Shown: positions 4,768-18,224, numbered from the stretch's first letter. The stretch: DNA of 32,000 nt from Alkalilimnicola ehrlichii MLHE-1 (GCF_000014785.1 NC_008340.1:1230001-1262000); one strand, 5' to 3'. Notes: a model not told the origin generated them from the sequence alone. Program-made: numbers and translations.

Positions 4768-7700
4768 ATGTCACCTGATGCGCAAGTTCCCCCCGAAGCC
4801 GGTGGCCCACAGGGACGCGATTTTCCCCTGGGTATCGCCGGCTTCCGTTACGCGGATCTCCACAACCCGGCGCAGCTTGCGGAACTGTTGAGCGTTTTCG
4901 ACCAATTCCTGGCGACGGACGATCCGGTATTGTTCGAGGTCTTTCAGCAGTACCGGACGGCCGGGGCGGGGGATCTCTCGGCCACGGAACGCTCGGCGGT
5001 ACTCACCGGGGTGGCCCCGCAAGTGAGCCGTTTTCTGGCCCGCCTCTTTGGGATCGAGAGCGAATGGGGTCGACTCCGGGAACGCGTTCAGCGGGAGTTG
5101 GATACCGTCATGGCCTACCGGGACCAAGTGGTCGCGAAGGTCCGGAAGCGCTTTGCCCCCGAGGATCTAGCCGACTGGGACCTGGAGACCCTGGACCGCG
5201 AGGTCTCTGTGCTCCAAGAGGCATTGTCCGGGAGCGATAACCCAGTCGAAGACCCGGAGCGGGCGCTTGCCGCGAGCGCCATGTCCGTGCTGCAGGCCAT
5301 GGAGACGGGGCACGACCCCGATGGCGTAACGGCCCTTCGGCAGTCACTGGAGGCGCATCCCGATGGCCCCACATTGCTGGCGGAGGCGCTGTCGGAGAGC
5401 ACCCCGCAGGCCTTCTTGGCCGCGCTTCTCAACCGGATAGAACGCTGGACTTTCGCCGCCGTTCAATCCACCGCAATCGGTGCCCAAACGCATGGTTGGA
5501 CGGCGCTGCGGGGACGGGCCAAGACGGACTTTGAGAACCAAGTGCCGTGCGAGCCCGTGGCGCGGGAGGGGTATACGGCGTATCGCACCGACGTGACGCG
5601 AAGGCGGGATGGGTTCGCACTCACTGATCCGGGTCTGCCGCTAAGGCGGATCGTGGACGAGGTGGAGCACTGCCTCTACTGCCACGATCGCGACCGGGAC
5701 TTCTGCTCCAAGGGTATGCGCGCAAAGGCGGGTGGTTTTCGCAACAACCCCTTGGGCACGCCCATGGTGGGCTGTCCGCTGGAGGAGAAGATCTCAGAGG
5801 CGCAATATCTCAAGCACCGGGGCGACAGCCTGGCCGCCCTGGCGGTGGTTATGGTGGACAACCCTATGGTGCCCGGGACCGGCCACCGCATCTGCAAGGA
5901 CTGCGTCACCGCCTGTATCTATCAGAAGGTCGAGCCGGTGGCGATCCCGGAGGTGGAAACGGCCATCCTGCGCGAGGTGCTTGCCCTGCCTTACGGCTTC
6001 GAGATCTACAGCCTGCTCACCCGGTGGAACCCCCTGCACGTCCAGCGCCCCCACATGCTGCCCTACAACGGCAAGAATGTGCTGGTTGCCGGTATGGGGC
6101 CGGCAGGTTACACCCTGGCCCACTACCTGTTGAATGAGGGGTTTGGCGTTGTCGGCATCGATGGCCTGAAGATTGAGCCCCTGCCCGATGAGTTGACTGG
6201 CGTCGCCAGCGGCGTTCCCGCGCCGGTGCGCGATTTCGACACCCTCTACGAGCGACTGGATGAACGGACGGTACTTGGCTTCGGCGGGGTCGCCGAGTAT
6301 GGCATTACCGCTCGCTGGGACAAGAACTTCCTCAAGGTCATCTATCTGACGCTAGCACGACGCCGCGCATTCCGCTGCTTTGGGGGGGTGCGCCTGGGTG
6401 GCACCCTGACGGTGGACGACGCCTGGGCCCTCGGCTTTCATCACATTGCGATCGCCGCCGGGGCCGGCAAGCCGACGGTCATCGGGCTTGAGAACAATCT
6501 GGTGCGCGGCATCCGTCAGGCATCGGACTTTCTGATGGGGCTGCAGCTGACCGGTGCGGCCCAGCGCAACGCCCTGGCCAACATGCAGGTTCGCCTGCCC
6601 GCCGGAGTGGTGGGGGGCGGGCTGACGGCCGTGGATACCACCACGGAGCTCCTCGCCTACTACCCCATCCAGGTGGAGCGAACGTTGGAGCGGTACGAGG
6701 CTGTGGTCAGCCGCTTTGGAGAGGAAGCGGTCCTGGCCGAATATGACGGCGAGGAACGCGAGATCCTTGACGAGTTTCTGGACCATGGCCGCGCCGTCCG
6801 GGCCGAGCGCGCCCGGGCAGAGCAGGCAGGGGAGTGCCCTGACTTCGCGCATCTGCTGTCGGGATGGGGGGGCGTCACGCTCTTCTACCGCAAGGGGTTG
6901 CATGACGCGCCGGCCTATCGGCAGAACCACGACGAGCTGGTCAGGGCCATGGAGGAGGGCCTGATTCTGGCTGATGGTATGGCACCGCAATCGGCCATGG
7001 CAGACGGGCATGGCCACCTGAAGGCCGTTCGTTTTGAGAAGATGCATCAGCAGGAGGATGGCGACTGGGTGGCCGGTGGTGAGACACTCACCTTGCCCCT
7101 TCGGACCCTGGTAGTGGCCGCCGGTACCTCACCCAACGTGGCCTACGAAAGGGAGCACCCGGGCACCTTCGAGCTGGATGGCAAATTCTTCCGTGCCTTC
7201 GAGCCCGGAGAGGACGCCCCACACCTGACGCCGGTGGGCGAGAACCAGCCCACCCCAAAAATTGGTAACCCGGCACCCTTCACCTCCTATGAACATGACG
7301 GCCGCCGCGTGTCCTTCTTCGGCGACAACCATCCCGTTTACGCAGGCAACGTGGTGCGCGCCATGGCCAGCGCCAAGGACGGTTATCCATACATCGTCGA
7401 CCTCTTCCGTCAGGCGCTCGACAGCCTGGACCCGGCCGATCAGCCGCAACGGGATGCGGCCATAAGCCGGTTGCTGGCGCACCTGGATGATCAGCTCCAG
7501 GCACGCGTACAGACGGTGCGGCGGCTGGCACCCAGTATTGTCGAGGTGGTGGCGCGTGCGCCGCTGCAGGCGCGCAACTTCCAGCCCGGGCAGTTCTACC
7601 GGGTACAGAACTACGCGTCGTGCGCCCCGCGGATGAACGGCGTGCCGCTGGTCACCGAGGGGATGGCGCTGACCGGGGCCTGGGTGGATAGGGCGCAGGG

Positions 7701-8481
7701 CCTGGTTTCGGTCATCGTGCTGGAAGTGGGCGCCTCGTCCCGCCTCTGTGCCACTTGGCAACCCGGCGACCCGCTGGTGCTGATGGGACCGACCGGTGCC
7801 CCCACCGAGATACCGGCTGGCGAGACGGTGCTGCTGGCCGGAGGCGGCCTGGGTAACGCCGTGCTCTTCTCCATCGGCCGGGCGTTGCGGGCGGCGGGTA
7901 GCCGGGTGCTTTACTTCGCCGGTTACCGTAACCCCGGCGACATCTATAAGGTTGACGAGATCGAGGCGGCGGCAGACGTAGTCGTCTGGAGTGTTGATCC
8001 CGGTCCCGGGGTGCAACCGGTGGTGGCACGCCGCCCACAGGATCGCAGCGTCGTCGGTAACATTGTGGAGGCAATGACCGCGTATGCCGCTGGTGAGTTA
8101 GGGTCGACTGCAGTGCCCATGGGAGCGGTGGATCGCATCATGGCCATCGGCTCCGATCGCATGATGGCGGCGGTGAAAGCAGCCCGTCGCGGGGCGCTTG
8201 AGCCTTATCTGAAACCTGGCCACGTGGCGCTCGGCTCCATCAACTCGCCGATGCAGTGCATGATGAAAGCGGTCTGTGCCCAGTGCCTGTGCCGGCAGGA
8301 GGATCCGGATAGCGGTGAGGAGCGGTTTGTCTTCAGCTGCTGTGAGCAGGATCAGCCCCTCGATGCCGTGGACTTTGAGCACCTGAACGGACGGCTGCGA
8401 CAGAATTCAGTCCAGGAGAAACTGACCAACCGGTGGCTCGATCTGCTCCTTGCGGAGGCCCCTGACATACCCAGGGTATAA
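4768..8481 (+). CDS. Large multidomain iron-sulfur flavoprotein: about 290-aa unassigned N-terminal region + GltD/NfnB-like domain + PyrK/NfnA-like ferredoxin-reductase-type domain
   Basis: GGGAG RBS 6 nt upstream of the ATG. GltD-type Cys region HCLYCHDRDRDFCSKG...GCPLEEKI...HRICKDCVTACIY. Dinucleotide fold VLVAGMGPAGYTLAHYLLNEGFGVVGIDG, with a second Rossmann-like VVGGGLTAVD. The C-terminal part has FQPGQFYRV, LLAGGGLGNAVLFSIGRAL and the Cys cluster CMMKAVCAQCLC...FSCC, as in PyrK-like 2Fe-2S electron-transfer subunits. Confidence 0.75.
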   Translation: MSPDAQVPPEAGGPQGRDFPLGIAGFRYADLHNPAQLAELLSVFDQFLATDDPVLFEVFQQYRTAGAGDLSATERSAVLTGVAPQVSRFLARLFGIESEWGRLRERVQRELDTVMAYRDQVVAKVRKRFAPEDLADWDLETLDREVSVLQEALSGSDNPVEDPERALAASAMSVLQAMETGHDPDGVTALRQSLEAHPDGPTLLAEALSESTPQAFLAALLNRIERWTFAAVQSTAIGAQTHGWTALRGRAKTDFENQVPCEPVAREGYTAYRTDVTRRRDGFALTDPGLPLRRIVDEVEHCLYCHDRDRDFCSKGMRAKAGGFRNNPLGTPMVGCPLEEKISEAQYLKHRGDSLAALAVVMVDNPMVPGTGHRICKDCVTACIYQKVEPVAIPEVETAILREVLALPYGFEIYSLLTRWNPLHVQRPHMLPYNGKNVLVAGMGPAGYTLAHYLLNEGFGVVGIDGLKIEPLPDELTGVASGVPAPVRDFDTLYERLDERTVLGFGGVAEYGITARWDKNFLKVIYLTLARRRAFRCFGGVRLGGTLTVDDAWALGFHHIAIAAGAGKPTVIGLENNLVRGIRQASDFLMGLQLTGAAQRNALANMQVRLPAGVVGGGLTAVDTTTELLAYYPIQVERTLERYEAVVSRFGEEAVLAEYDGEEREILDEFLDHGRAVRAERARAEQAGECPDFAHLLSGWGGVTLFYRKGLHDAPAYRQNHDELVRAMEEGLILADGMAPQSAMADGHGHLKAVRFEKMHQQEDGDWVAGGETLTLPLRTLVVAAGTSPNVAYEREHPGTFELDGKFFRAFEPGEDAPHLTPVGENQPTPKIGNPAPFTSYEHDGRRVSFFGDNHPVYAGNVVRAMASAKDGYPYIVDLFRQALDSLDPADQPQRDAAISRLLAHLDDQLQARVQTVRRLAPSIVEVVARAPLQARNFQPGQFYRVQNYASCAPRMNGVPLVTEGMALTGAWVDRAQGLVSVIVLEVGASSRLCATWQPGDPLVLMGPTGAPTEIPAGETVLLAGGGLGNAVLFSIGRALRAAGSRVLYFAGYRNPGDIYKVDEIEAAADVVVWSVDPGPGVQPVVARRPQDRSVVGNIVEAMTAYAAGELGSTAVPMGAVDRIMAIGSDRMMAAVKAARRGALEPYLKPGHVALGSINSPMQCMMKAVCAQCLCRQEDPDSGEERFVFSCCEQDQPLDAVDFEHLNGRLRQNSVQEKLTNRWLDLLLAEAPDIPRV

Positions 8482-8767
8482 GCCGCCCGGGGGGCACGGG
8501 TGGAAAAGAAGAGGCCCTCGGTCCGGCCGCCGAGGCGTGTGCCGGATGAGGGCCATAACCACTACGGAGAGGGTTGAATGGACACGGCCTTCTTAAAGCA
8601 GAAATCGGGCCAACTCATGAATACCGAAAAATCAATTGGTTACGAGGAGGGTGCCTGGTCCGGGTAGGGCAAATCGCCCACACGATCCGTTGCCTGCCAC
8701 GATCCGACTCTGAGTGCCGGTGGCGCACCCGGTCCGGGTGACGCGGCGGGGAGGTGCGCGGTTGTCT

Positions 8768-8779
8768 CCCCCCCCCCCC
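8768..8779. repeat. C12 homopolymer tract (intergenic)
   Basis: Counted directly: 12 consecutive C at 8768-8779. Confidence 0.9.
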
Positions 8780-8784
8780 ACACC

Positions 8785-9013
8785 GTCACTGCGAGGAGGC
8801 GAAGCCGAAGTGGCAGTCTACCGCCCTGGATCGCCACGGGCCTTCGGCCCTCGCGATGACGGGGGGAAAGCCTTCGGCCCTGGCAATGACGGGGGTGCCC
8901 CGTTCCTCGTTGATTCGGGCCCGCGCAGCGGGGAGGGGGGCTCGCGATGACGGGGGTGTGCCGTCCTTCGTAGATTCGGGCTCGCGCAGCGGGGGTGGGG
9001 CTCGCAATGAGGA
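8785..9013. repeat. Cluster of GC-rich palindromic (REP-like) elements with degenerate tandem units
   Basis: GTCACTGCGAGG...CCTCGCGATGAC is a long imperfect palindrome. Units GCCTTCGGCCCTCGCGATGACGGGGG (8840-8865) and GCCTTCGGCCCTGGCAATGACGGGGG (8870-8895) match 24/26. Two units of about 58 bp (8896-8956 and 8957-9013) share TTCGGGC(C/T)CGCGCAGCGGGG...GGGGCTCGC(G/A)ATGA. The GGGCC-TTC-GGCCC hairpin cores sit in a noncoding context. Confidence 0.8.
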
Positions 9014-9030
9014 TGTATTCAGTGCTTCCA

Positions 9031-9069
9031 CAAAAACAAAAAAGGGGTTAGGCCGCTAGACCTAACCCC
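9031..9069 (-). terminator. Rho-independent terminator (original tRNA-Asn terminator displaced by the insertion)
   Basis: Stem GGGGTTAGG (9044-9052) / CCTAACCCC (9061-9069) with an 8-nt loop. On the minus strand it is followed by TTTTTTGTTTTTG. It lies immediately 3-prime of the tRNA fragment at 9082-9129. Confidence 0.6.
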
Positions 9070-9081
9070 TCTTCGCTTCTT

Positions 9082-9129
9082 TGGCTCCCCGGGACGGGCT
9101 CGAACCGCCGACCCAGTGATTAACAGTCA
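9082..9129 (-). repeat. att direct repeat, copy 1: 48-bp duplicate of the 3-prime part of tRNA-Asn
   Basis: TGGCTCCCCGGGACGGGCTCGAACCGCCGACCCAGTGATTAACAGTCA is identical (48/48) to 18149-18196 inside the intact tRNA. It covers CCA, acceptor 3-prime strand, T arm, variable loop and anticodon loop. Confidence 0.92.
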
Positions 9130-9244
9130 AGCGTTTCTTTCTTTCCCGTCCATTTTTATCACTTGCTCCCTCCCTCCTGGATGCCCGTAAACCCTTGTAC
9201 GGCCTGCATCCAAGGCGTATTATTCTATTCAGGTTAATGCAGTT

Positions 9245-9289
9245 GGGTGCACATCTTGTGACCGCCAGTGTGCACCCAGTTGTGCACCC
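9245..9289. promoter_or_regulatory. Left-arm array of 9-mer TGTGCACCC sites (candidate integrase/excisionase arm-type sites)
   Basis: GGGTGCACA (9245-9253, inverted), then TGTGCACCC at 9269-9277 and 9281-9289 (12-bp spacing). The block ACCGCCAGTGTGCACCCAGTTGTGCACCCA (9261-9290) matches 18061-18090 at 27/30 in the same orientation. Confidence 0.5.
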
Positions 9290-9340
9290 AATCGGCCCAG
9301 TGATTCGGGTTCTGATCTAGTGATTCAGGAGGGCAGGGCG

Positions 9341-10735
9341 ATGGCTCGCAAGGGTATTACGGCCAAGAAACTGGAGGCGCTCCAGGGCAAGCGCCGCAAG
9401 TCGGCCACCAGGGAGTGGGACGGTGACGGTTCAGGGTTCGGGGTGAAGGTGTCGGCAGCCGGGCGGCTGACATTCTTTCAGTTCTACTACTCCCCCGAGG
9501 GCACCACCGATAAAGACGGTAACGACATTACCGGCAAGCGGCGGTTCATGGGGCTGGGTAACTACCCTGAGACAACGCTCGCAGAGGCGCGGGAGAAGGC
9601 GCAGGAGGCGCGAGAGTTGCTAGAGCGGGGCATTGATCCGCAGGAGCACGCCCGAGAGCAGCAGGAGGCGCACAGGCGGGAGAAACGCAAGCGGGCGCAA
9701 CGGGGCACGCTGGCAGGGGTGGCGGCGCTGTACCTGTGGCACATGCGCAAGCGCGGGCGCTCCAGGGAGTACATTACCGCCGTTCGCCGTGGGTTCCACC
9801 GCGACGTGTTCCCGGTGGTGCCCCGTGACACCAAGGCCGGGGACGTGGAGCCGGAGGACGTGCAACTGATCCTGCACCGGCCCCTAAGCCGTGGCGCTGA
9901 CCATACCGCCCGAGTGCTGCGGGCTAACCTGCATCGCGCGTTCAAGTTGGCCATTCAGGCGGATAACGACCCGCGCAACCTGGGCAGTGCCGTTAAGTTC
10001 CGCGTGCGCCACAACCCGGTGGAGGACGTGCCGCTTGAGGTGCACGTTACGCCCGGAGATCGGGAGCTTTCATTTAGCGAGATCGGGCGCGTATGGCGGG
10101 AGGCCGACCACGCGACCCCTTACCCGCAGGATGCGTTGCTGTTGCGCCTGCTGCTGGCGCTGGGCGGCCAGCACATTACCGAGCTGAGGGAAGCACAGTG
10201 GCCCGAGTTCGATTTGCAGGCCGGACAGTGGCACCTGAAAGCCGCCCGGCACAAAAACCGCACCCGCGACCACCTGGTACCAATCAACAGCACCGCCGCC
10301 GAAGTGCTGGAGGAATTGCGGGCGCTGACTGGTGGGCAAGGGTACCTGTTCCCGCAGCTACGCAACGCGCACAAGCCCATGCGAGCCGAGAGGCCGGGCG
10401 CTATCGTTCGCGGTCTGCTGGCGCACCTGGAGGCGCAGGGCGAGCCGATGGAGAAGTTTACGGCCTCAGACTTCCGGCGCACCTGCAAAACGCGGATGCA
10501 CGAGATAGGGATTCCCAAAACCACCACCAACCACCTGCACAACCATGACTTTGGTGGCGTGAGCGCGAAGCACTACGACCGCTACGACTATTGGGGCGAG
10601 AAACAGCGGGCCATGCGGGCATGGGATATTGCGCTGAAAGCCGCCATTGCAGGCGAGCCGGTGCCCGAGGCGCGTTGCCGGGCGGCGCTCCAGTGGGACG
10701 AGAATGGCGGGGCGCGGCTGGAGGTGGTGGGCTAG
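9341..10735 (+). CDS. Tyrosine recombinase, P4-type integrase (N-terminal arm-binding DUF4102-like domain)
   Basis: AGGAGGG RBS 8 nt before the ATG at 9341 (the track start at 9320 is less likely). N-terminus GSGFGVKVSAAGRLTFFQFYYSP...RRFMGLGNYPETTLAEAREKAQEARELLERGIDP matches the P4-integrase arm-domain pattern. The C-terminal catalytic region has DFRRTCKT...LHNH...KHYDRYDY (R, H-x-x-R-like, Tyr). Confidence 0.85.
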   Translation: MARKGITAKKLEALQGKRRKSATREWDGDGSGFGVKVSAAGRLTFFQFYYSPEGTTDKDGNDITGKRRFMGLGNYPETTLAEAREKAQEARELLERGIDPQEHAREQQEAHRREKRKRAQRGTLAGVAALYLWHMRKRGRSREYITAVRRGFHRDVFPVVPRDTKAGDVEPEDVQLILHRPLSRGADHTARVLRANLHRAFKLAIQADNDPRNLGSAVKFRVRHNPVEDVPLEVHVTPGDRELSFSEIGRVWREADHATPYPQDALLLRLLLALGGQHITELREAQWPEFDLQAGQWHLKAARHKNRTRDHLVPINSTAAEVLEELRALTGGQGYLFPQLRNAHKPMRAERPGAIVRGLLAHLEAQGEPMEKFTASDFRRTCKTRMHEIGIPKTTTNHLHNHDFGGVSAKHYDRYDYWGEKQRAMRAWDIALKAAIAGEPVPEARCRAALQWDENGGARLEVVG

Positions 10736-11072: not shown

Positions 11073-11300
11073 ATGACCGCACAAAACGCGACCGCCTGCC
11101 CTTCCCGCCTGATGAAAAAGCGGGAAGTCATCGACGTTACCGGCCTTTCCGAGTCCACGATCTGGCGACGTGAGCAGGAAGGGCGATTCCCTCCCCGTAT
11201 TCGCCTGGGCCAGCGCATGACCGTCTGGCGTGAGTCGGACGTTCACGAATGGCTTGCCGATCCGGTTGGTTATCAGCAGGCAGGCGGGGAGGGTGCGTAA
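11073..11300 (+). CDS. AlpA-family (prophage CP4-57-type) DNA-binding regulator / excisionase-like protein
   Basis: 75 aa. LMKKREVIDVTGLSESTIWRREQEGRFPPRIRLGQRMTVWRESDVHEWL matches the AlpA/MerR-like winged-HTH pattern. Its stop overlaps the next gene start (TAATG). Confidence 0.75.
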   Translation: MTAQNATACPSRLMKKREVIDVTGLSESTIWRREQEGRFPPRIRLGQRMTVWRESDVHEWLADPVGYQQAGGEGA

Positions 11301-14077
11301 TGCTGACAGAAAAACGAAACCCCGCCGCCGGGGGCGAACCGGCGAACGGGGCGGGCGCACATTGGGATGGCGTGCAACAGAATTATAGCACTGCCGATAG
11401 CACTGCCGATGCCGCCGTTTCACTGTTCACCGCTACGAACCCCTCCCGCCTTTCCAAGCGGTACCATCTGGACCAACAGGGCCAGCTTCTGACCGCCCCC
11501 GGTGGTTCCCTAGTGCGTGGCGAATACCGGCGCATGGAATGCGGGGAGCCGTGGCAACTGGCAACGCTAATTGACGGGTTGCGGCCAGACCAAGCGTTGG
11601 CCTTTGGCGTGGCTAGGGCTGAACGTTCCCCCGTGGCATCCCGCAAGGCCGCAAAAGAAGGGGACATTACCCGCACCCGTGAGCACTTCGATTGGCCCGC
11701 CGCGCCCGGGTGGCTCATGCTCGACTATGACCCTGAGGCGACCGCCAAACCGCTAGACCGGGATGGCCTGTTGTCGGTGCTGCGGGAAGCGTGGCCAGAC
11801 ATCGAGCGTGCCCCGTTGGTGCTGGGTGATAGTGGCAGTTCCCATATCTACCACGCTGATACGGGCGAATGCGTTAAGGGCCGGGGCGGGTTGCGCTGCT
11901 ATGTCCTGGTGGCTGACGCCCGCGACATACCCCGAGCAGGTGAGGTTCTGCATAAGCGCCTATGGCTTGCGGGTCACGGCTTTTACTTGGTGAGCAAGTC
12001 CGGTGCCCTGCTGGAGCGTGGCCCCGTGGATGCCGTGGTGTGGCAGCCCGAGCGCCTGGACTTCGCCGCCGGTGCCGCTTGCATCGCGCCCCTGGAACAA
12101 CGCCGCCCACCGGCAGAGCCGCGCAACAATGACGCCGCGCCCATCGACACCCGCGCAACGCTGCCGGACCTGACAGCCGCAGAGCTGGAGGAACTGGCCG
12201 AGCTGCGCCGACAGGAACGCGAGGCAATGGCGCCAGACCAAGCATTGCAGCGGGAAGAGTGGGTAGAGCAGCGCCTAGACGAAATCCAGCCGAAGGATGT
12301 CGAGGAAGCCCGCGCCCGGCTAACTGATGCGGTGACGAACGGGCGTCTTTACGGTGACTTCGTTTTGCACCACCAAAGCGGCAAGCGCGTGACGGTCGGG
12401 CAAGTGCTGGACGATCCCGACCGCTGGCATGGGCAACGCTTCGCTGATCCGCTGGAACCGGATTACCGGGCGGACAGCCGAATAGCATGGCTGAACCTTC
12501 GCAGTGGTGGCCGCCCCTTCATCTACAGTCATGCCCACGGCGGGGCGCGTTATACGTTGATCCGCGCAAGCGCCACGTTGAAGGCCCAGCCCGGGGAAAT
12601 GCCGCGCATTGTGCGCGAAGCCGACGCCCTTATGGCTGAAGCCGGTGTTGTGTTCCAACGTGGGGGGCAGCTTGTCCGGGTAGTGGAGGACGGTACCCTA
12701 TTCGGGGTGCAACCGCCTTGGTTGCGGACTCACCTGGAGGAAGTAGCCGCATGGCTGAGGTGGGACGGGCGCGCCAAGGATTGGCTACCTGCCGACGCGC
12801 CCGGAGACCTTGCGCCGCGCATCCTGGCCAACCGGGGCGGCTGGAGCGTGCCCGAGCTGACCGGGGTAATTCGCGGGCCGATACTGCGCCCCGATGGCTC
12901 CCTGTTGAACCAGCCCGGCTATGACAAGGCAACCGGCCTGCTGCTGCTAGCAGACCACCCGGACGGCTGGCCAGCCATTCCAGCGCACCCGAGCCGGGAG
13001 CAGGTACGGGCCGCGTTGGCCACCCTTTGGGAGCCTTTCGCGCGCTTCCCTTATGTCGATGACGTGAGCCGAGCGGTTCAACTGGCCGCGTTGCTGACCG
13101 CCGTTCAGCGCCCACTGTTGGAGACCGCGCCCGCCTTCGCCTGGAACGCCTACCGGGCAGGAACGGGCAAGAGCAAGGGCGCGAAGGCTACAGCATGGCT
13201 AGGCGGTTCCGAGCCGGTCGAAAGCCCGTGGTCGGAGCAAGCCGAGGAACAGCGCAAGCGCCTAATGTCCGCGCTGATGGCCGGGCCGTCTAGTCTGCTG
13301 CTAGACAACGTAAGCGGCCCTATGGACTCGGACACGTTATGCGCGGTGTTGACCGCGAGCGAGTTCAGAGACCGCAAGCTAGGCGTATCTGAGGATGTGA
13401 GCGCCCCAACCCGCGTGTTGGTGGCTGCCACGGGTAACAACCTTCGACTAGTGGGCGACCTGTCCCGCCGGGTACTGGTTGCCACCATCGACCACGGAGT
13501 GGAGAACCCGGAGCGCCTGGCCTTCCCCTTTGACCCGGTGGCCCGCGTGCGGGAGCGGTGGTTGCACTACCGCGCCGCCGCCCTAACGGTGCTGCGCGGG
13601 TTTCTCGCTGAGGGCGCCCCAGCCCATGGCCTTGGAACGATGGGCAGCTATGAACAATGGGATGCCCTTATTCGCCAATGCGTGGTCTGGGTCAGGGCCG
13701 AAGGGCTGGCGGGGTTTAGCCTGGCTGACCCTGCCGACGCCGTGGCCCGCAACTACGACAACGACCCGGAAACGCAGAAGCTCCGGGCGCTGGTGGCGGC
13801 ATGGCACGCGCAACACGCCGCCGCGCCCGTGCGGGTCGCCACGCTAATCAGCACAGCCGGGGGCGATGTCGACGGCTGCACCTTCCCGCAATACGACGAA
13901 GGACGGGCGGCGCTGCTGGAGGCCCTGCAAGAGATCGCGGGGGATCGTGGTTATGTGAATCGCCGCCGGTTGGGCCGTTGGATAGAGCGCCACGCCGGGC
14001 GCGTTGTCGATGGCCTGCGCATTGAGAGCGCGGGGGAGGCGTACAAGACCCGGCAATGGCGGGTGGTGCAAGTCTGA
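11300..14077 (+). CDS. Primase/helicase-like replication protein (AEP-like N-terminal motifs + P-loop NTPase)
   Basis: Start ATG at 11300, coupled to the alpA-like stop; the track ORF begins earlier at 11249. N-terminal motifs resemble archaeo-eukaryotic primase signatures: LMLDYDPE (DxD), GDSGSSHIYH (SGxxxH), VDAVVW. The central ILRPDGSLLNQPGYDKATGLLL resembles the D5_N/P4-primase region. P-loop AYRAGTGKSKGA and Walker-B-like SSLLLDNV. The position after int and alpA is as in P4-like/PICI-like elements. Confidence 0.6.
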   Translation: MLTEKRNPAAGGEPANGAGAHWDGVQQNYSTADSTADAAVSLFTATNPSRLSKRYHLDQQGQLLTAPGGSLVRGEYRRMECGEPWQLATLIDGLRPDQALAFGVARAERSPVASRKAAKEGDITRTREHFDWPAAPGWLMLDYDPEATAKPLDRDGLLSVLREAWPDIERAPLVLGDSGSSHIYHADTGECVKGRGGLRCYVLVADARDIPRAGEVLHKRLWLAGHGFYLVSKSGALLERGPVDAVVWQPERLDFAAGAACIAPLEQRRPPAEPRNNDAAPIDTRATLPDLTAAELEELAELRRQEREAMAPDQALQREEWVEQRLDEIQPKDVEEARARLTDAVTNGRLYGDFVLHHQSGKRVTVGQVLDDPDRWHGQRFADPLEPDYRADSRIAWLNLRSGGRPFIYSHAHGGARYTLIRASATLKAQPGEMPRIVREADALMAEAGVVFQRGGQLVRVVEDGTLFGVQPPWLRTHLEEVAAWLRWDGRAKDWLPADAPGDLAPRILANRGGWSVPELTGVIRGPILRPDGSLLNQPGYDKATGLLLLADHPDGWPAIPAHPSREQVRAALATLWEPFARFPYVDDVSRAVQLAALLTAVQRPLLETAPAFAWNAYRAGTGKSKGAKATAWLGGSEPVESPWSEQAEEQRKRLMSALMAGPSSLLLDNVSGPMDSDTLCAVLTASEFRDRKLGVSEDVSAPTRVLVAATGNNLRLVGDLSRRVLVATIDHGVENPERLAFPFDPVARVRERWLHYRAAALTVLRGFLAEGAPAHGLGTMGSYEQWDALIRQCVVWVRAEGLAGFSLADPADAVARNYDNDPETQKLRALVAAWHAQHAAAPVRVATLISTAGGDVDGCTFPQYDEGRAALLEALQEIAGDRGYVNRRRLGRWIERHAGRVVDGLRIESAGEAYKTRQWRVVQV

Positions 14078-14441: not shown

Positions 14442-14807
14442 ATGGCGGCCAAGCATCAGGACATTCCAAAGCAATACCGCCCCGGCTGGCTGGAATCGCT
14501 GGACGGTCGTTATGGCCTTGCCCGTGAGCTACGCGCCCGCTTCGATGAAGTCTGTAATGACCTTGGTGGTGCGGATCGCTTGTCTTACATGCAGCGATCC
14601 CTTGTAGAGCGTGGTCTGTGGCTCGAATACTGGCTGGCCCAACAGGAGCAGGCGTTGTCCAAGGGCGGTGACTTCGACGTGGGCAAGTGGGTGCAGGCCG
14701 CTAACAGTCTCCAGGGTATCTACTCCCGCCTTGGTCTGGAGCGCCGTCAACGTGACGTTCCAGACCTTGCGCAATACCTGGCGGCCAAGGCAGGGGAGGC
14801 GGGCTAA
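14442..14807 (+). CDS. Hypothetical protein; putative small terminase subunit by position
   Basis: 121-aa helical protein with high GC3. It lies directly upstream of, and is translationally coupled to (TAATG at 14805-14809), the mini-ORF and TerL. I recognise no diagnostic motif. Confidence 0.45.
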   Translation: MAAKHQDIPKQYRPGWLESLDGRYGLARELRARFDEVCNDLGGADRLSYMQRSLVERGLWLEYWLAQQEQALSKGGDFDVGKWVQAANSLQGIYSRLGLERRQRDVPDLAQYLAAKAGEAG

Positions 14808-15040
14808 TGGTCATCTGTGCCAACTGCCGCCACTACCCCGGTCCCGGCCAGCTATGCGCGGTGGCCAAGCGCCACGCCACGCACCACCGCCGTTCCTGCC
14901 GCTACCACCGGACGGACACCAGCGCCCGCCACGTCGCCACGCTCCGCCGCCTGGCGGTGGATTGGCTCCACCAGGGCGATCACAACCGCTACGCCGTAAC
15001 CCTGGACCTGGCCCACCAGGCACGGGAGGCGATGCGATGA
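14807..15040 (+). CDS. Small Cys4/His-rich protein (possible zinc-ribbon), hypothetical
   Basis: 77 aa, MVICANCRHYPGPGQLCAVAKRHATHHRRSCRYH. Strong G/C third-position bias. Start and stop both overlap the neighbours (TAATG; ATGCGATGA). Confidence 0.45.
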   Translation: MVICANCRHYPGPGQLCAVAKRHATHHRRSCRYHRTDTSARHVATLRRLAVDWLHQGDHNRYAVTLDLAHQAREAMR

Positions 15041-16428
15041 GCGTCACCATCCGCGACGTGATGACCGATCCCGCCCTGTTCGGTGGCCAGTTCGGTGGCG
15101 ACACCTGGGCCGCCTGGCGTGCGCTCCTGAGCGGCTTTTATGGCCTCCCGCTGGACGATGCCGAGGCACAGCACTGGCACGCGCTCACAGACCGCGAGAG
15201 CGCCCCGCAGAGCGCACATGACGAGTTGTGGCTAGTGGTAGGCCGCCGCGGTGGCAAGTCCAATGCAGCGGCCTTGCTGGCGGTCTATGAGGCGTGTTTC
15301 AAAGACCACCGCGATGCCCTGGCACCCGGTGAGGTTGCCACCACCCGCGTCATGGCTGCCGACCGTGCGCAGGCCCGCAGCGTGTTCCGGTATATCTCCG
15401 GTCTGATGCACGCGAATCCGATGCTGGAACGGCTGATCGTGCGCGAGGATCGGGAATCCATAGAGCTGTCCAACCGGGCTGTTATCGAGGTGGGCACGGC
15501 CTCATTCCGCACGACACGCGGCTACACGTTCGCGGCGGTGATTGCCGACGAGGTGGCGTTCTGGCGCTCCGATGACAGCGCGAACCCTGACAGCGAGATC
15601 ATTGCCGCCGTGCGTCCCGGTCTGGCCACGCTGAACGGCAAGCTGATCGCGCTTTCCAGCCCATACGCCCGACGCGGTGAGCTATGGGAAAACTACCGCC
15701 GACACTACGGCAAGGCATCGCCCATCCTGGTGGCGCAGGCTCCCAGCCGCACCATGAATCCCTCATTGCCTGAGCGCGTGGTCACGGAGGCAATGGAGCG
15801 TGACCCGGCCAGTGCGGCGGCGGAGTACCTGGCGGAGTTCAGGACGGACGTGGAGACCTTCCTGCAACGCGAAGTAGTAGAGGCCGCCACGCGGCCCACC
15901 CCGCTGGAGTTGCCCTACAACAAGCGCGTTACCTATACCGCCTTTGTTGATCCGGCAGGTGGTGGCGCGGATGAGTTCACCGCCGCCATCGGCCACCGGG
16001 AAGGGGAGCGCGTGGTCGTGGACGTGCTACGCGCCCGCAAGGGTACGCCTGCCGAGATCGTTGCCGAATACGCCGACCTGCTGAAGTCCTACCGGATCAC
16101 CCGCGCTATCTCGGATCGTTATGCAGGCTCATGGCCTGCCGACGAGTTCAGCCGCCACGGGATCACCGTAGAGCAGGCCGCTAAACCGAAGTCAGACCTT
16201 TATCGGGACATGCTCGCCAGCATGAACAGCGCCCGCGTGGAGCTTCCGCCCGATGATCGGCTGATGACCCAGCTAATCAGCCTGGAGCGCCGCACAGCAC
16301 GCGGTGGCCGGGACAGTATCGACCACGCCCCCGGTGGTCACGATGACAGAGCAAACGCCGTTGCCGGTCTGGTGGCGGCCAACTCACGCGCCCCAGGCGA
16401 ACGGATGCGGGCGCTTTGCACTTGGTAG
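15037..16428 (+). CDS. Phage terminase large subunit
   Basis: The ATG at 15037 overlaps the upstream stop; the track ORF from 14611 has a Pro/Arg-rich, non-protein-like extension. Walker A LVVGRRGGKSNAAALL, Walker B AAVIADEVAFW. The C-terminal RNaseH-like nuclease has acidic residues in FVDPAGGGADEF and GGHDDRANAVAG. Confidence 0.8.
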   Translation: MSVTIRDVMTDPALFGGQFGGDTWAAWRALLSGFYGLPLDDAEAQHWHALTDRESAPQSAHDELWLVVGRRGGKSNAAALLAVYEACFKDHRDALAPGEVATTRVMAADRAQARSVFRYISGLMHANPMLERLIVREDRESIELSNRAVIEVGTASFRTTRGYTFAAVIADEVAFWRSDDSANPDSEIIAAVRPGLATLNGKLIALSSPYARRGELWENYRRHYGKASPILVAQAPSRTMNPSLPERVVTEAMERDPASAAAEYLAEFRTDVETFLQREVVEAATRPTPLELPYNKRVTYTAFVDPAGGGADEFTAAIGHREGERVVVDVLRARKGTPAEIVAEYADLLKSYRITRAISDRYAGSWPADEFSRHGITVEQAAKPKSDLYRDMLASMNSARVELPPDDRLMTQLISLERRTARGGRDSIDHAPGGHDDRANAVAGLVAANSRAPGERMRALCTW

Positions 16429-16446: not shown

Positions 16447-16872
16447 ATGGCAGTTTTCAGAAGTGACAGCCCACAGCATTGGGAACAACCGTCCAGGCCC
16501 ATTAAGGAGTTCTGGAGTTCCGACCTTGAGCCGAAGGCCGACAGCAAGCCCACCCGACGCAAGGCAGACCCGAGCGCGGTGCAACGGCTGATGAACCAGC
16601 GCACCGCCACCCCGAAGGCCGACACCGCTCCGCCGCGCCGTGCTGGCCGGTATGACGCTGGTGCCGAGCGCCGCCGACAGGCCGCCGCGATGGCGGAAAT
16701 CCGCGACCGTCACAAGTCTAGTCGCGGCCTCACCCGCACCGACGCGAAGGCAAAGGCCGCTCCGGTCATGCCAGAGCCGACCACGGACAGCGCTCCGAGT
16801 GGTGGCGGGTATCAGGCGATGGTGGACGCGATCAAGGGCGCACATAAGCGGGGAGGTGATAACAATGGGTAA
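16447..16872 (+). CDS. Hypothetical basic, low-complexity protein
   Basis: 141 aa, rich in Arg/Lys/Ala/Pro, with no recognisable motif. It occupies the position where a portal gene would follow TerL in a phage. It overlaps the next ORF by 8 bp (ATGGGTAA). Confidence 0.4.
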   Translation: MAVFRSDSPQHWEQPSRPIKEFWSSDLEPKADSKPTRRKADPSAVQRLMNQRTATPKADTAPPRRAGRYDAGAERRRQAAAMAEIRDRHKSSRGLTRTDAKAKAAPVMPEPTTDSAPSGGGYQAMVDAIKGAHKRGGDNNG

Positions 16873-17437
16873 GCATGTAGACGCACTGGAAAAGCAGATT
16901 GCCGAAGAGTACCGGCTCAACGAGGAACACGCAGCCGCCGCCGACAAGGCCCGCGACGAGTATCAGGCCGCCGTGGCTGCCGGGGACATGGGAGCGGCTT
17001 CCAACTGCCGTGCCGAGGCCGAACGGCTGGACGGCCTTGCTCGTCAACATGGCGACCGCATAGACGCCCTGGAGGCGCAACGGCCCGAAGCCGAGCGCAA
17101 GGATAACGGCCCTGCCTTCCGGCAGGCGGTGAAGGTGATGGAGCAGGAGTTGCAGGAGGAAGCCGACACCCATGCCGAGCTGGCCGAGCTGGTGGGTAAG
17201 CTGGCCGATCTGCGTAAACGGCTGGACGAAGTACACGCCAGCGCCACCGCCGCCTGTCGCAAAGCCTTTCAGGCCGCCGACGCTGCCCATGAACCGCGAC
17301 CCGAAGTTGACCGGGATCGCATGGCCACCACCGCCGACATGGATGCCCTGATGCGTACAGTAAGGGAGCTGATGAACGTGGCGGGGCACCAGGCAACGCT
17401 AGTCATGAACACGCGGGATAAGGCCCGCGCCGCCTAG
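16865..17437 (+). CDS. Hypothetical acidic alpha-helical coiled-coil protein (scaffold-like composition)
   Basis: The ATG at 16865 is in frame with track ORF 16640-17437. 190 aa, starting MGKHVDALEKQIAEEYRLNEEHAAAADKARDEYQAAV..., with heptad-like Ala/Glu/Leu/Arg composition and good GC3 bias. Confidence 0.5.
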   Translation: MGKHVDALEKQIAEEYRLNEEHAAAADKARDEYQAAVAAGDMGAASNCRAEAERLDGLARQHGDRIDALEAQRPEAERKDNGPAFRQAVKVMEQELQEEADTHAELAELVGKLADLRKRLDEVHASATAACRKAFQAADAAHEPRPEVDRDRMATTADMDALMRTVRELMNVAGHQATLVMNTRDKARAA

Positions 17438-17519
17438 ACCTCGCTGGAAGTGGGGAGCGGTTATTGCCTGCACCGCTCGCGTCCGGCCCGATGGGGTGGC
17501 CGCCCACGAAACCCCTAGC

Positions 17520-17565
17520 GCCCCGGTGGCCTCACTCAGCCATCGGGGCGTGTTTTGTTTTTGGG
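17520..17565 (+). terminator. Rho-independent terminator after the packaging-module genes
   Basis: Stem GCCCCGGTGG (17520-17529) / CCATCGGGGC (17540-17549), 9/10, with a 10-nt loop, followed by GTGTTTTGTTTTTGGG. Confidence 0.55.
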
Positions 17566-17593: not shown

Positions 17594-18058
17594 ATGTATG
17601 AGGCGGAGGCGAAGGAGAGGCAGAGGTTGTCCCCTGGGCGGCCAGTCGCGAGCGCCGGAAAAGGTCCGGAAATAATTCCGGATGTTTCTGATGATCAGCC
17701 CATCACCACCAGTCAGAAGGCCGCCATCGCAGCCGAGAAGATGGAGCCGCCCAAGCCGTCCCGCTACGAGCAAGAATCCCGCGCCAAGGCCGCCGCAGAC
17801 TTCGGCACCAATCCGCGCTATGTGTCGGATGCGAAGAGGTGGCGCAGTGCTAGGCCGCATTCTTGCATGTCATGCAAGGGGCATTCCCCCATGCAAGGCG
17901 TGCCAACATTGAAGTTTCCTATCGGTATTGGCGGTAAACGGCGTTTGTCCTATCGACCTGCGCGGGTGGTCTGGCATCCATCCGCAGAGTGGGGCGGGTT
18001 CTGGCGACCCGGTGGCCGACCGCTGGGTAAAGTGCGCTGCACCCAGTTATGCACCTAG
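17594..18058 (+). pseudogene. ParB-like/KorB-like fragment (probable remnant)
   Basis: YEAEAKERQRLSPGRP...GKGPEI...ESRAKAAADFGTNPRYVSDAKRW resembles the region after the ParB N-terminal domain in phage ParB-like nucleases, but no N-terminal domain is present. The track start (TTG at 17555) lies inside the terminator T-tract, and the 3-prime part of the ORF runs through the arm-site repeats. Confidence 0.25.
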
Positions 18059-18089
18059 CAACCGCCAATGTGCACCCACCTGTGCACCC
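18037..18089. promoter_or_regulatory. Right-arm array of 9-mer sites (candidate arm-type recombinase sites)
   Basis: Perfect TGTGCACCC at 18069-18077 and 18081-18089 (12-bp spacing, the same geometry as the left arm), plus degenerate copies CTGCACCC (18037-18044) and TATGCACCT (18048-18056), 12 bp apart. Confidence 0.5.
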
Positions 18090-18103
18090 AGATAACCCCC
18101 AGA

Positions 18104-18148: not shown

Positions 18149-18224
<76 letters not shown>

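Follow-up and report, generated by a model that had tools for sequence, protein, structure and literature searches.

Several satellites provide small proteins that act on the capsid of a helper phage. In P4 these are Sid, an external size-determining scaffold, and Psu, a capsid decoration protein of 190 amino acids (aa); both are helical, within a range of about 190-245 aa, and both act on the helper capsid protein. Ccm, one of the size switchers of the Staphylococcus aureus pathogenicity islands (SaPIs), is a homolog of the capsid protein. At one fixed position in operon I of the SaPIs, CpmAB, Ccm and the multi-helical Rcm, size switchers without homology to one another, occur as alternatives (PMC12409344). 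A further type of satellite, the capsid-forming phage-inducible chromosomal island (cfPICI), carries terL, which is treated as a specific core marker, and its core adds capsid, portal, head-tail adaptor and connector genes (PMC10085698). Here we describe two adjacent open reading frames (ORFs), ORF141 and ORF190, of Alkalilimnicola ehrlichii MLHE-1. They lie within a 32,000-nucleotide stretch of its genome (NC_008340.1:1230001-1262000), which we call the window and from whose first letter positions are counted. The pair belongs to a 9.07-kb island that is integrated in tRNA-Asn and bounded by a 48-nt exact repeat, and ORF141 starts 18 nt downstream of the terminase gene TerL. We tentatively propose that the two proteins act on the assembly of helper capsids. 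The exploitation of helper heads by satellite proteins is already known; the protein families of ORF141 and ORF190 are orphans.

A translationally coupled pair of conserved genes

ORF141 lies 5' and ORF190 3' on the + strand of the window, and the two overlap by 8 nt (ATGGGTAA). A GAGG-type Shine-Dalgarno sequence precedes each of them. The coordinates, the overlap and the 190-aa length of the second product had all been given correctly in an initial annotation of this DNA. A full HMMER scan of 1.84 billion protein representatives yielded 31 cluster representatives related to ORF190; their lengths are 150-241 aa, save for one 63-aa C-terminal fragment, and the matches are mostly near full-length. 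Homologs of ORF141 were gathered from gene neighbourhoods, not by sequence search, and a k-mer search with ORF141 returned no homolog besides ORF141 itself. Positional homologs were found in this way at six of our loci (L001, L003, L007, L118, L119 and L121).

In every locus of the TerL type that was examined, the distant L118 and L119 included, a small basic ORF stands directly 5' of the ORF190 homolog. The two are tightly coupled in all seven loci in which both genes were measured, with a spacing of -8 to +2 nt. Across these seven pairs the small protein has an isoelectric point (pI) of 10.0-11.0 and a net charge of +4 to +12, and the large protein a pI of 5.1-6.1 and a net charge of -2 to -10. 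The ratio of nonsynonymous to synonymous substitution rates (dN/dS) is 0.2-0.4 for ORF190 and, in unsaturated comparisons, 0.10-0.44 for ORF141; for TerL it is 0.12-0.16. ORF141 and ORF190 are real, conserved genes under purifying selection, and together they form a translationally coupled two-protein cassette in which one protein is basic and disordered and the other acidic and helical.

The G+C-rich DNA of this region gives many long spurious ORFs in all frames, as would be expected if the two ORFs were chance frames or the decayed remnants of a portal gene. This explanation is refuted, and we give it practically no weight, as it is at odds with the 31 clusters, the dN/dS of 0.2-0.4, the Shine-Dalgarno sequences and the predicted local distance difference test score (pLDDT) of 97 for the ORF190 model, and with a pairing and charge pattern that is kept in seven loci. 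The idea of a portal or capsid gene that has split or decayed was rejected as well, ORF190 having a confident all-alpha fold.

ORF141 has a pI of 10.4, a net charge of +10 and 67% disorder-promoting residues; it is poor in residues that promote order, and the charge-hydropathy boundary places it among disordered proteins. Its single-sequence AlphaFold2 model has a pLDDT of 63.8, a predicted template-modelling score (pTM) of 0.21 and no globular fold, with only three isolated helices, at residues 42-53, 71-92 and 121-133. The first protein had been annotated as basic and disordered, and these values agree. The family shares a motif, hydrophobic-x-[D/E/S]-hydrophobic-[R/K]-x-[A/M]-[H/W/Y]-[K/R]-[R/K], which describes a short basic amphipathic helix. 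Long members have two copies (in A. ehrlichii at residues ~78-93 and ~121-134, both overlying helices predicted in the AlphaFold2 model), and short members have one, at the C-terminus.

ORF190, with a pI of 5.2 and a net charge of -10, is as acidic as the initial annotation had it; its composition is 22% Ala, 11% Glu, 10% Arg, 9% Asp and 7% Leu. An AlphaFold2 model built on a 33-sequence alignment is all-helical (pLDDT 97.2, pTM 0.74), with helices at residues 3-39, 42-71, 73-140 and 159-189 (37, 30, 68 and 31 residues), and it has the elongated, largely alpha-helical form expected of phage scaffolding proteins. The label of a heptad-like coiled coil did not survive closer inspection. The maximum occupancy of a and d positions by strong hydrophobic residues, 0.75, is reached by 17% of shuffled sequences, so the heptad periodicity is not above that expected by chance and ORF190 does not behave as a canonical coiled coil. 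Judged by the model, an elongated intramolecular helical bundle is the more fitting description. Its C-terminus is conserved and basic, and often finishes R-K-A-A or R-K-A-G.

The initial annotation had likened the second protein to phage scaffolding proteins and to satellite proteins that redirect capsid size, such as Sid and CpmB, and structure prediction and homology searches bear directly on this. Pfam, PHROGs and PADLOC returned nothing for either protein. Searches of the PDB with phmmer and with profiles returned only de novo designed helical proteins, matches that are a compositional effect. With tblastn, ORF190 had no match at E <= 1 in 50,697 phage genomes. Foldseek comparison of the ORF190 model with the PDB and BFVD gave nothing below E = 0.02, the best E-values being 0.03-0.05. 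P4 Sid and TcaP of the PLEs (elements that resemble phage-inducible chromosomal islands) were absent from the PDB sequence matches shown for ORF190 and from the 50 best Foldseek PDB matches listed, the latter being also devoid of CpmB and of any phage scaffold. Nor did these searches reveal homology of the pair to the known scaffolds P22 gp8, phi29 gp7, 80alpha gp46 and lambda Nu3 or to protease-scaffold fusions. As all homology tests (Pfam, PHROGs, PDB profiles, Foldseek) were negative, membership of the pair in the scaffold, Sid or CpmB family is not supported.

The best Foldseek matches of ORF190 were ESCRT-III proteins, Vipp1 and tape-measure hairpins, and the top PDB matches among them, CHMP1B, Vipp1, Snf7 and PspA, reached a 'prob' of up to 1.0. 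Taken at face value, they would make ORF190 a polymerising membrane-remodelling protein of the ESCRT-III/PspA/Vipp1 kind. We regard this as very improbable, since the E-values are at least 0.046, the TM-scores 0.4-0.5 and the full-length root-mean-square deviations 15-30 Å, and since the well-superposed matches span one hairpin, as any long helical hairpin would give. Pfam Snf7 matches three of 33 members, at E-values of at least 0.11, and PspA_IM30 is absent among the 25 families listed. The order of helix lengths in ORF190 is also unlike what we assume to be that of the ESCRT-III fold. We judge both the ESCRT-III and the tape-measure matches to be generic to hairpins.

Alternative cassettes behind TerL

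The pair had been said to occupy the portal position, and this is well founded: in true phages from IMG/VR whose TerL is 43-47% identical to that of the island, the portal gene directly follows TerL. In two of these phages, L023 and L026, a MuF-like protein comes after the portal, and in L026 it is followed by a DUF2213-related head-protease-like protein.

In more than 100 loci we surveyed what lies between TerL and F1, a small conserved gene, and found this slot to be filled by mutually exclusive gene sets. The ORF141/ORF190 pair occupies it in five distinct complete loci and in partial ones. In 13 loci the slot holds a protein of ~250 aa, F0, with a partner of 60-80 aa (F3 or F5) and sometimes a stand-alone DUF2213 prohead-protease domain (Pfam 8.6e-33, phrog_530 4e-32); in about eight it holds a protein of ~240 aa, F4. 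A major capsid protein of the HK97 type follows TerL in six (L120, L017, L018, L020, L072/L073 and L114; Pfam Phage_capsid down to 1.9e-76). Profile-profile comparisons revealed no relationship among the pair, F0, F4, the capsid protein and other slot families. Specifically, hhalign found no relation of the ORF190 and ORF141 profiles to any other slot family, to the L120 capsid protein and its N-terminal arm, or to the protease-scaffold/protease-like protein of L026. At least five non-homologous cassettes occur in elements whose TerL proteins are 65-80% identical, and a fixed operon position with alternative, non-homologous occupants, a capsid-protein homolog among them, is the arrangement of the SaPI switchers.

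The closest relative by TerL (80% identical) is L120, from another A. ehrlichii strain (CP184336.1 3399-12197). In its slot a Phage_capsid protein of 380 aa precedes the F1 gene, and there is no portal, so that in MLHE-1 the pair takes the very place of the capsid gene in a sister element of the same species. The L120 capsid protein is 39-42% identical to those of Bcep176 and Azospirillum Cd-type siphophages. L120, L072/L073 and L114 each combine a TerS-like gene, TerL and the HK97 major capsid protein without portal or protease, and sister satellites of the L120 type are intermediate between capsid-stealing and capsid-forming satellites. The initial annotation had held that absence of the pair from otherwise syntenic elements would tell against its idea. 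Taken literally, this is what we see, as most such elements lack the pair; the genes that replace it argue for the idea.

The stand-alone DUF2213 domain, 150 aa long, was seen in the satellite slot at L008 (10282-10731), L040/L041 and L043/L044. In phages DUF2213 stands as a domain at the N-terminus of head-maturation protease proteins, of which some are annotated as coil-containing, and the satellite version could be a decoy or hijacker of prohead maturation. F1 closes the late operon behind each of the capsid protein, F0, F4 and pair cassettes, the last of these in L118. Its family comprises proteins of 70-155 aa with the motif LW.AAL...DA (e.g. L064 2717-2992, L120 11916-12197 and L118 917-1123), to which no known family was assigned.

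The F3 proteins of 60-72 aa (e.g. L077 11151-11360 and L082 1943-2161) have C-termini such as SLTERIKSQL and SLTERIRDSLQHG, which match the extreme C-terminus (PPSLTERIRTSRAVN) of the phage head-protease-like protein at L026 12754-14403. The C-termini of ORF141 proteins (e.g. SMADSIRNAWRK) are similar to both, and the C-terminal helix motif of ORF141 (such as SMADSIRNA) resembles the C-terminus of the L026 protein (SLTERIRTS), a lead obtained post hoc. Among 8246 ORFs, the strict form of this motif, also drawn up post hoc, stands near the C-terminus solely in these F3-, L026- and ORF141-type proteins. The shared ending may represent a CpmB-style mimicry of a scaffold C-terminus, again a post hoc suggestion from sequence.

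A slot this variable, with at least five non-homologous cassettes at 65-80% TerL identity, and lying distally, near the attachment (att) site, would also suit accessory cargo unrelated to morphogenesis. The pair could then serve in anti-phage or anti-helper interference, regulate helper expression or be a host-fitness gene in a variable hot-spot. Variable defence-gene hot-spots in satellites of the P4 and PICI (phage-inducible chromosomal island) kinds are described in PMC9122126. We nonetheless hold a cargo role to be rather unlikely. The recognisable occupants of the slot, the capsid protein and the DUF2213 protease domain, are all head-morphogenesis genes, PADLOC has no match for the pair, and the cassette is flanked by the conserved late-operon genes TerL and F1 and co-transcribed with the terminase.

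Distant homologs of ORF190 (P0152 and P0136) were found in islands of 6-7.5 kb that have an integrase and a primase and no TerS or TerL. These are L122, from Nitrincola sp. A-D6 (4782-10606), and L123 (3233-10823), in which the small basic ORF is downstream of the ORF190 homolog, not upstream. Next to the L122 island, as in L006, are the uvrC gene and a pgsA-type (CDP-OH_P_transf) gene of the host, and the island has a tRNA-like sequence at its end. The presence of ORF190 homologs in such islands implies a function independent of an island-encoded terminase, which weakens a role as a TerL adaptor and fits a protein acting on helper components rather than on the island TerL.

These islands bear on whether the pair works at the level of packaging, on the terminase or portal and not on the shell. 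It might, in the manner of Ppi and Rpp of PICIs or of the PLE factor that manipulates the packaging motor of ICP1, block or redirect the helper TerS/TerL, or it might adapt the island TerL to the helper portal, with the basic ORF141 perhaps binding DNA. Placement of the pair so close behind TerL, in the same operon, and the strongly basic character of ORF141 speak for such a role, and known interference proteins are small orphan helical proteins. The helper packaging motor is among the targets of satellites according to PMC11417361. Against this, the TerL-less islands L122 and L123 make an adaptor for TerL unlikely, the genes that take the place of the pair in the slot encode capsid proteins and protease domains rather than packaging proteins, and no homology to terminase-binding proteins was found. 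On balance, we consider a packaging-level factor unlikely.

A tentative role in helper capsid assembly

No capsid, portal, protease, connector, tail or lysis gene lies between attL and attR. As the island is without capsid, portal, protease and tail genes of its own, its shell would have to come from a helper phage. The comparative context points to capsid morphogenesis and gives partial support to the proposed analogy with scaffolds and size redirectors. This analogy gains from the slot, which holds a capsid protein or a protease domain in sister elements, and loses from the homology tests. We put forward, as a tentative reading, that the pair is a two-protein factor acting on helper capsid assembly. 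What the data show is the anatomy, conservation, pairing and slot equivalence of the two genes; the binding partners of their products and any effect on capsid size are inferred.

We propose a model in which ORF190 would be a scaffold-like rod that acts on the helper capsid protein, its longest helix, of 68 residues, spanning roughly 10 nm. ORF141 would contribute short amphipathic helices of basic character, one or two in number and carried by flexible linkers, which might tether ORF190 to the shell or, by their complementary charge, attach to ORF190 itself. With the help of the pair, the satellite could gain procapsids, perhaps of a reduced size that matches 9 kb of DNA, and the island's own terminase would then fill them. 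The pair would thereby replace the need for the satellite-encoded capsid gene of the sister element. By our own estimate, a small shell of the HK97 type (T=3 or T=4) would be suitable for a 9-kb genome.

Several points weigh against this model. The argument is one of guilt by position, and the slot is located distally in the element, adjacent to att, where satellites also keep unrelated accessory or defence cargo. Other common cassettes (F0/F3 and F4) are themselves orphans, and neither in sequence nor in fold is the pair homologous to a scaffold, Sid, CpmB, Rcm, Psu or a decoration protein. Contact between ORF141 and ORF190 is likewise something that the model would presuppose. Finally, marine satellites can be packaged as concatemers without capsid remodelling (PMC9618062), so that a size redirector is not required.

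One may go a step further, to a proposition that stands in greater doubt. The pair could be a new two-component capsid-assembly hijacker that replaces a satellite-encoded major capsid protein. It would belong to a large, undescribed family of ~8-10-kb TerS/TerL satellites of Gammaproteobacteria with a swappable capsid-determinant cassette, be it their own capsid, a protease-domain decoy or an orphan scaffold-like set, each probably matched to a different helper. If true, this would add a new, non-homologous route of helper-capsid takeover to those of Sid, CpmAB, Ccm, Rcm and TcaP, and capsid-forming and capsid-stealing lifestyles would be interconvertible by one cassette swap, here within one species. 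The element family would also merit a description of its own, its TerL having thousands of metagenomic homologs and no close relative in sequenced phages. The census of cassettes offers a natural experiment for satellite-helper pairing.

The island, its relatives and known systems

The features of the island are collected in Table 1. Its recognised genes are all on the + strand, and no Rfam family besides the tRNA was found in it. With an integrase, an AlpA-type regulator, a primase-replicase, att sites and a small size, and without tail or lysis genes, it has the make-up of PICI- and P4-like elements. The island is a phage satellite with its own terminase that would depend on a helper. A prophage remnant was considered and rejected, given that the compact architecture is kept across genera, the att sites are intact and circular contigs exist.

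Table 1. Features of the A. ehrlichii MLHE-1 island, in window positions
Feature	Position	Strand	Description
attL	9082..9129	.	48-nt exact direct repeat of the tRNA-Asn 3' part
TGCACCCA-type repeats near attL	9252..9290	.	recur at 18038-18090; period-12 repeat at 9265-9290
Tyrosine integrase	9320..10735	+	Arm-DNA-bind_3 9.6e-19, Phage_integrase 1.4e-11, phrog_1 1.8e-39
AlpA/HTH_17-like small regulator or excisionase	11073..11282 (boundaries approximate)	+	by tblastn and position
Primase/helicase-type replication protein	11249..14077	+	942 aa; phrog_16593 DNA primase 3.8e-57, phrog_29234 3.4e-97
TerS-position protein	14442..14807	+	121 aa; in all relatives immediately upstream of TerL and conserved (44-75% identity)
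Cys-rich ORF	14807-15040	+	77 aa (CxxC...C...C); between TerS-position gene and TerL
TerL	15037..16428	+	463 aa; phrog_2 5.4e-23
ORF141	16447-16872	+	141 aa; ATG start; basic, largely disordered
ORF190	16865-17437	+	190 aa; ATG inside a longer GTG ORF; acidic, all-helical, orphan family
Terminator-like hairpin and T-run	17518..17561 (hairpin 17518-17551)	+	13 pairs, 10 of them G-C
tRNA-Asn(GTT)	18149..18224	-	3' 48 nt (18149-18196) = attR

The TGCACCCA repeats just inside both ends of the island are probably arm-type sites of the integrase. Immediately outside attL, on the host side, a G+C-rich 61-nt tandem repeat with internal palindromes occupies 8883-9010 (2.1 copies, 85% matches). HTH_17 proteins from L001, L007 and L121, used as tblastn queries, located the AlpA-like gene (E 1e-6 to 1e-4), and it has the same position in relatives. 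The 121-aa protein upstream of TerL had no match in Pfam, PHROGs, PADLOC or the PDB; its position would make it TerS. The Cys-rich ORF fills an apparent 230-nt gap between this gene and TerL. With its L120 counterpart, a 78-aa gene in the same place (8768-9004), it shares 73% identity; most relatives lack it, and its product may be a zinc-binding packaging accessory. In TerL, the Walker A motif (GRRGGKS), the Walker B motif (DE) and the acidic residues of the nuclease are invariant in 22 homologs.

The hairpin would end a TerS-TerL-ORF141-ORF190 operon, with the pair at its close. No gene of the F1 family follows ORF190 in the window. An ORF at 17594-18058 (+) lies past the terminator and next to attR, where relatives have F1, and may represent either a remnant or a small gene of its own. 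It has no match in Pfam, PHROGs or PADLOC; its N-terminal part (AKERQ...GKG...RYVSDAKRW) resembles what we take to be ParB/HTH-type DNA-binding motifs.

The TerL of the island has more than 7600 homologs at E < 1e-20 in public data, many of them on contigs of 8-10 kb, and no GenBank phage is more than 26% identical to it over most of the protein. Its clade, 65-80% identical, spans several gammaproteobacterial genera. The order integrase, small ORF, HTH_17, a primase whose type varies, 120-aa protein, TerL, variable genes and att recurs in Thioalkalivibrio, Spiribacter, Marinobacter and metagenomes. Terminal overlaps in contigs L047 (10.2 kb) and L020 (8.2 kb) indicate that these are circular. 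In the literature searched, we found no description of integrase-AlpA-primase-TerS-TerL islands without capsid genes, and the clade looks like an abundant, undescribed satellite lineage.

How does the island compare with the satellites described so far? It shares with the cfPICIs the set of integrase, AlpA and primase together with TerS and TerL, and its relative L017 has both capsid and portal. Unlike them, it is 9 kb long, against a cfPICI median of 14 kb, and genes for capsid, portal, protease and head-tail connectors are absent from it; without capsid, portal and connector genes it falls outside the cfPICI definition. With terL used as a cfPICI marker, tools such as SatelliteFinder may miss or misfile islands of this kind. 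P4 is similar in its size of about 10 kb, its location in a tRNA and its integrase and primase. It differs in having no terminase genes, relying on the P2 terminase and a cos site, and neither Sid nor Psu is among the 50 best Foldseek PDB matches or the PDB sequence matches shown.

Internal scaffolds of phages (P22 gp8, phi29 gp7, 80alpha gp46 and the DUF2213 protease-scaffold fusions) differ from ORF190 in that no homology links them and that the element has no cognate capsid gene. ORF190 resembles them in being elongated, acidic and all-alpha, and in the place of its gene, which lies in the head-gene region and downstream of the terminase. The SaPI switchers, for their part, show no sequence or fold similarity to the pair, whether CpmB, Rcm or the 80alpha scaffold is considered, SaPIs carry no TerL of their own as this island does, and the host here is a gammaproteobacterium. 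Like the pair, however, they are small, mostly helical satellite proteins encoded in a late or packaging operon, and the two-gene arrangement recalls that of cpmA-cpmB. In both systems a single locus accepts alternative occupants, here the HK97 capsid protein of L120 or the ORF141/ORF190 pair.

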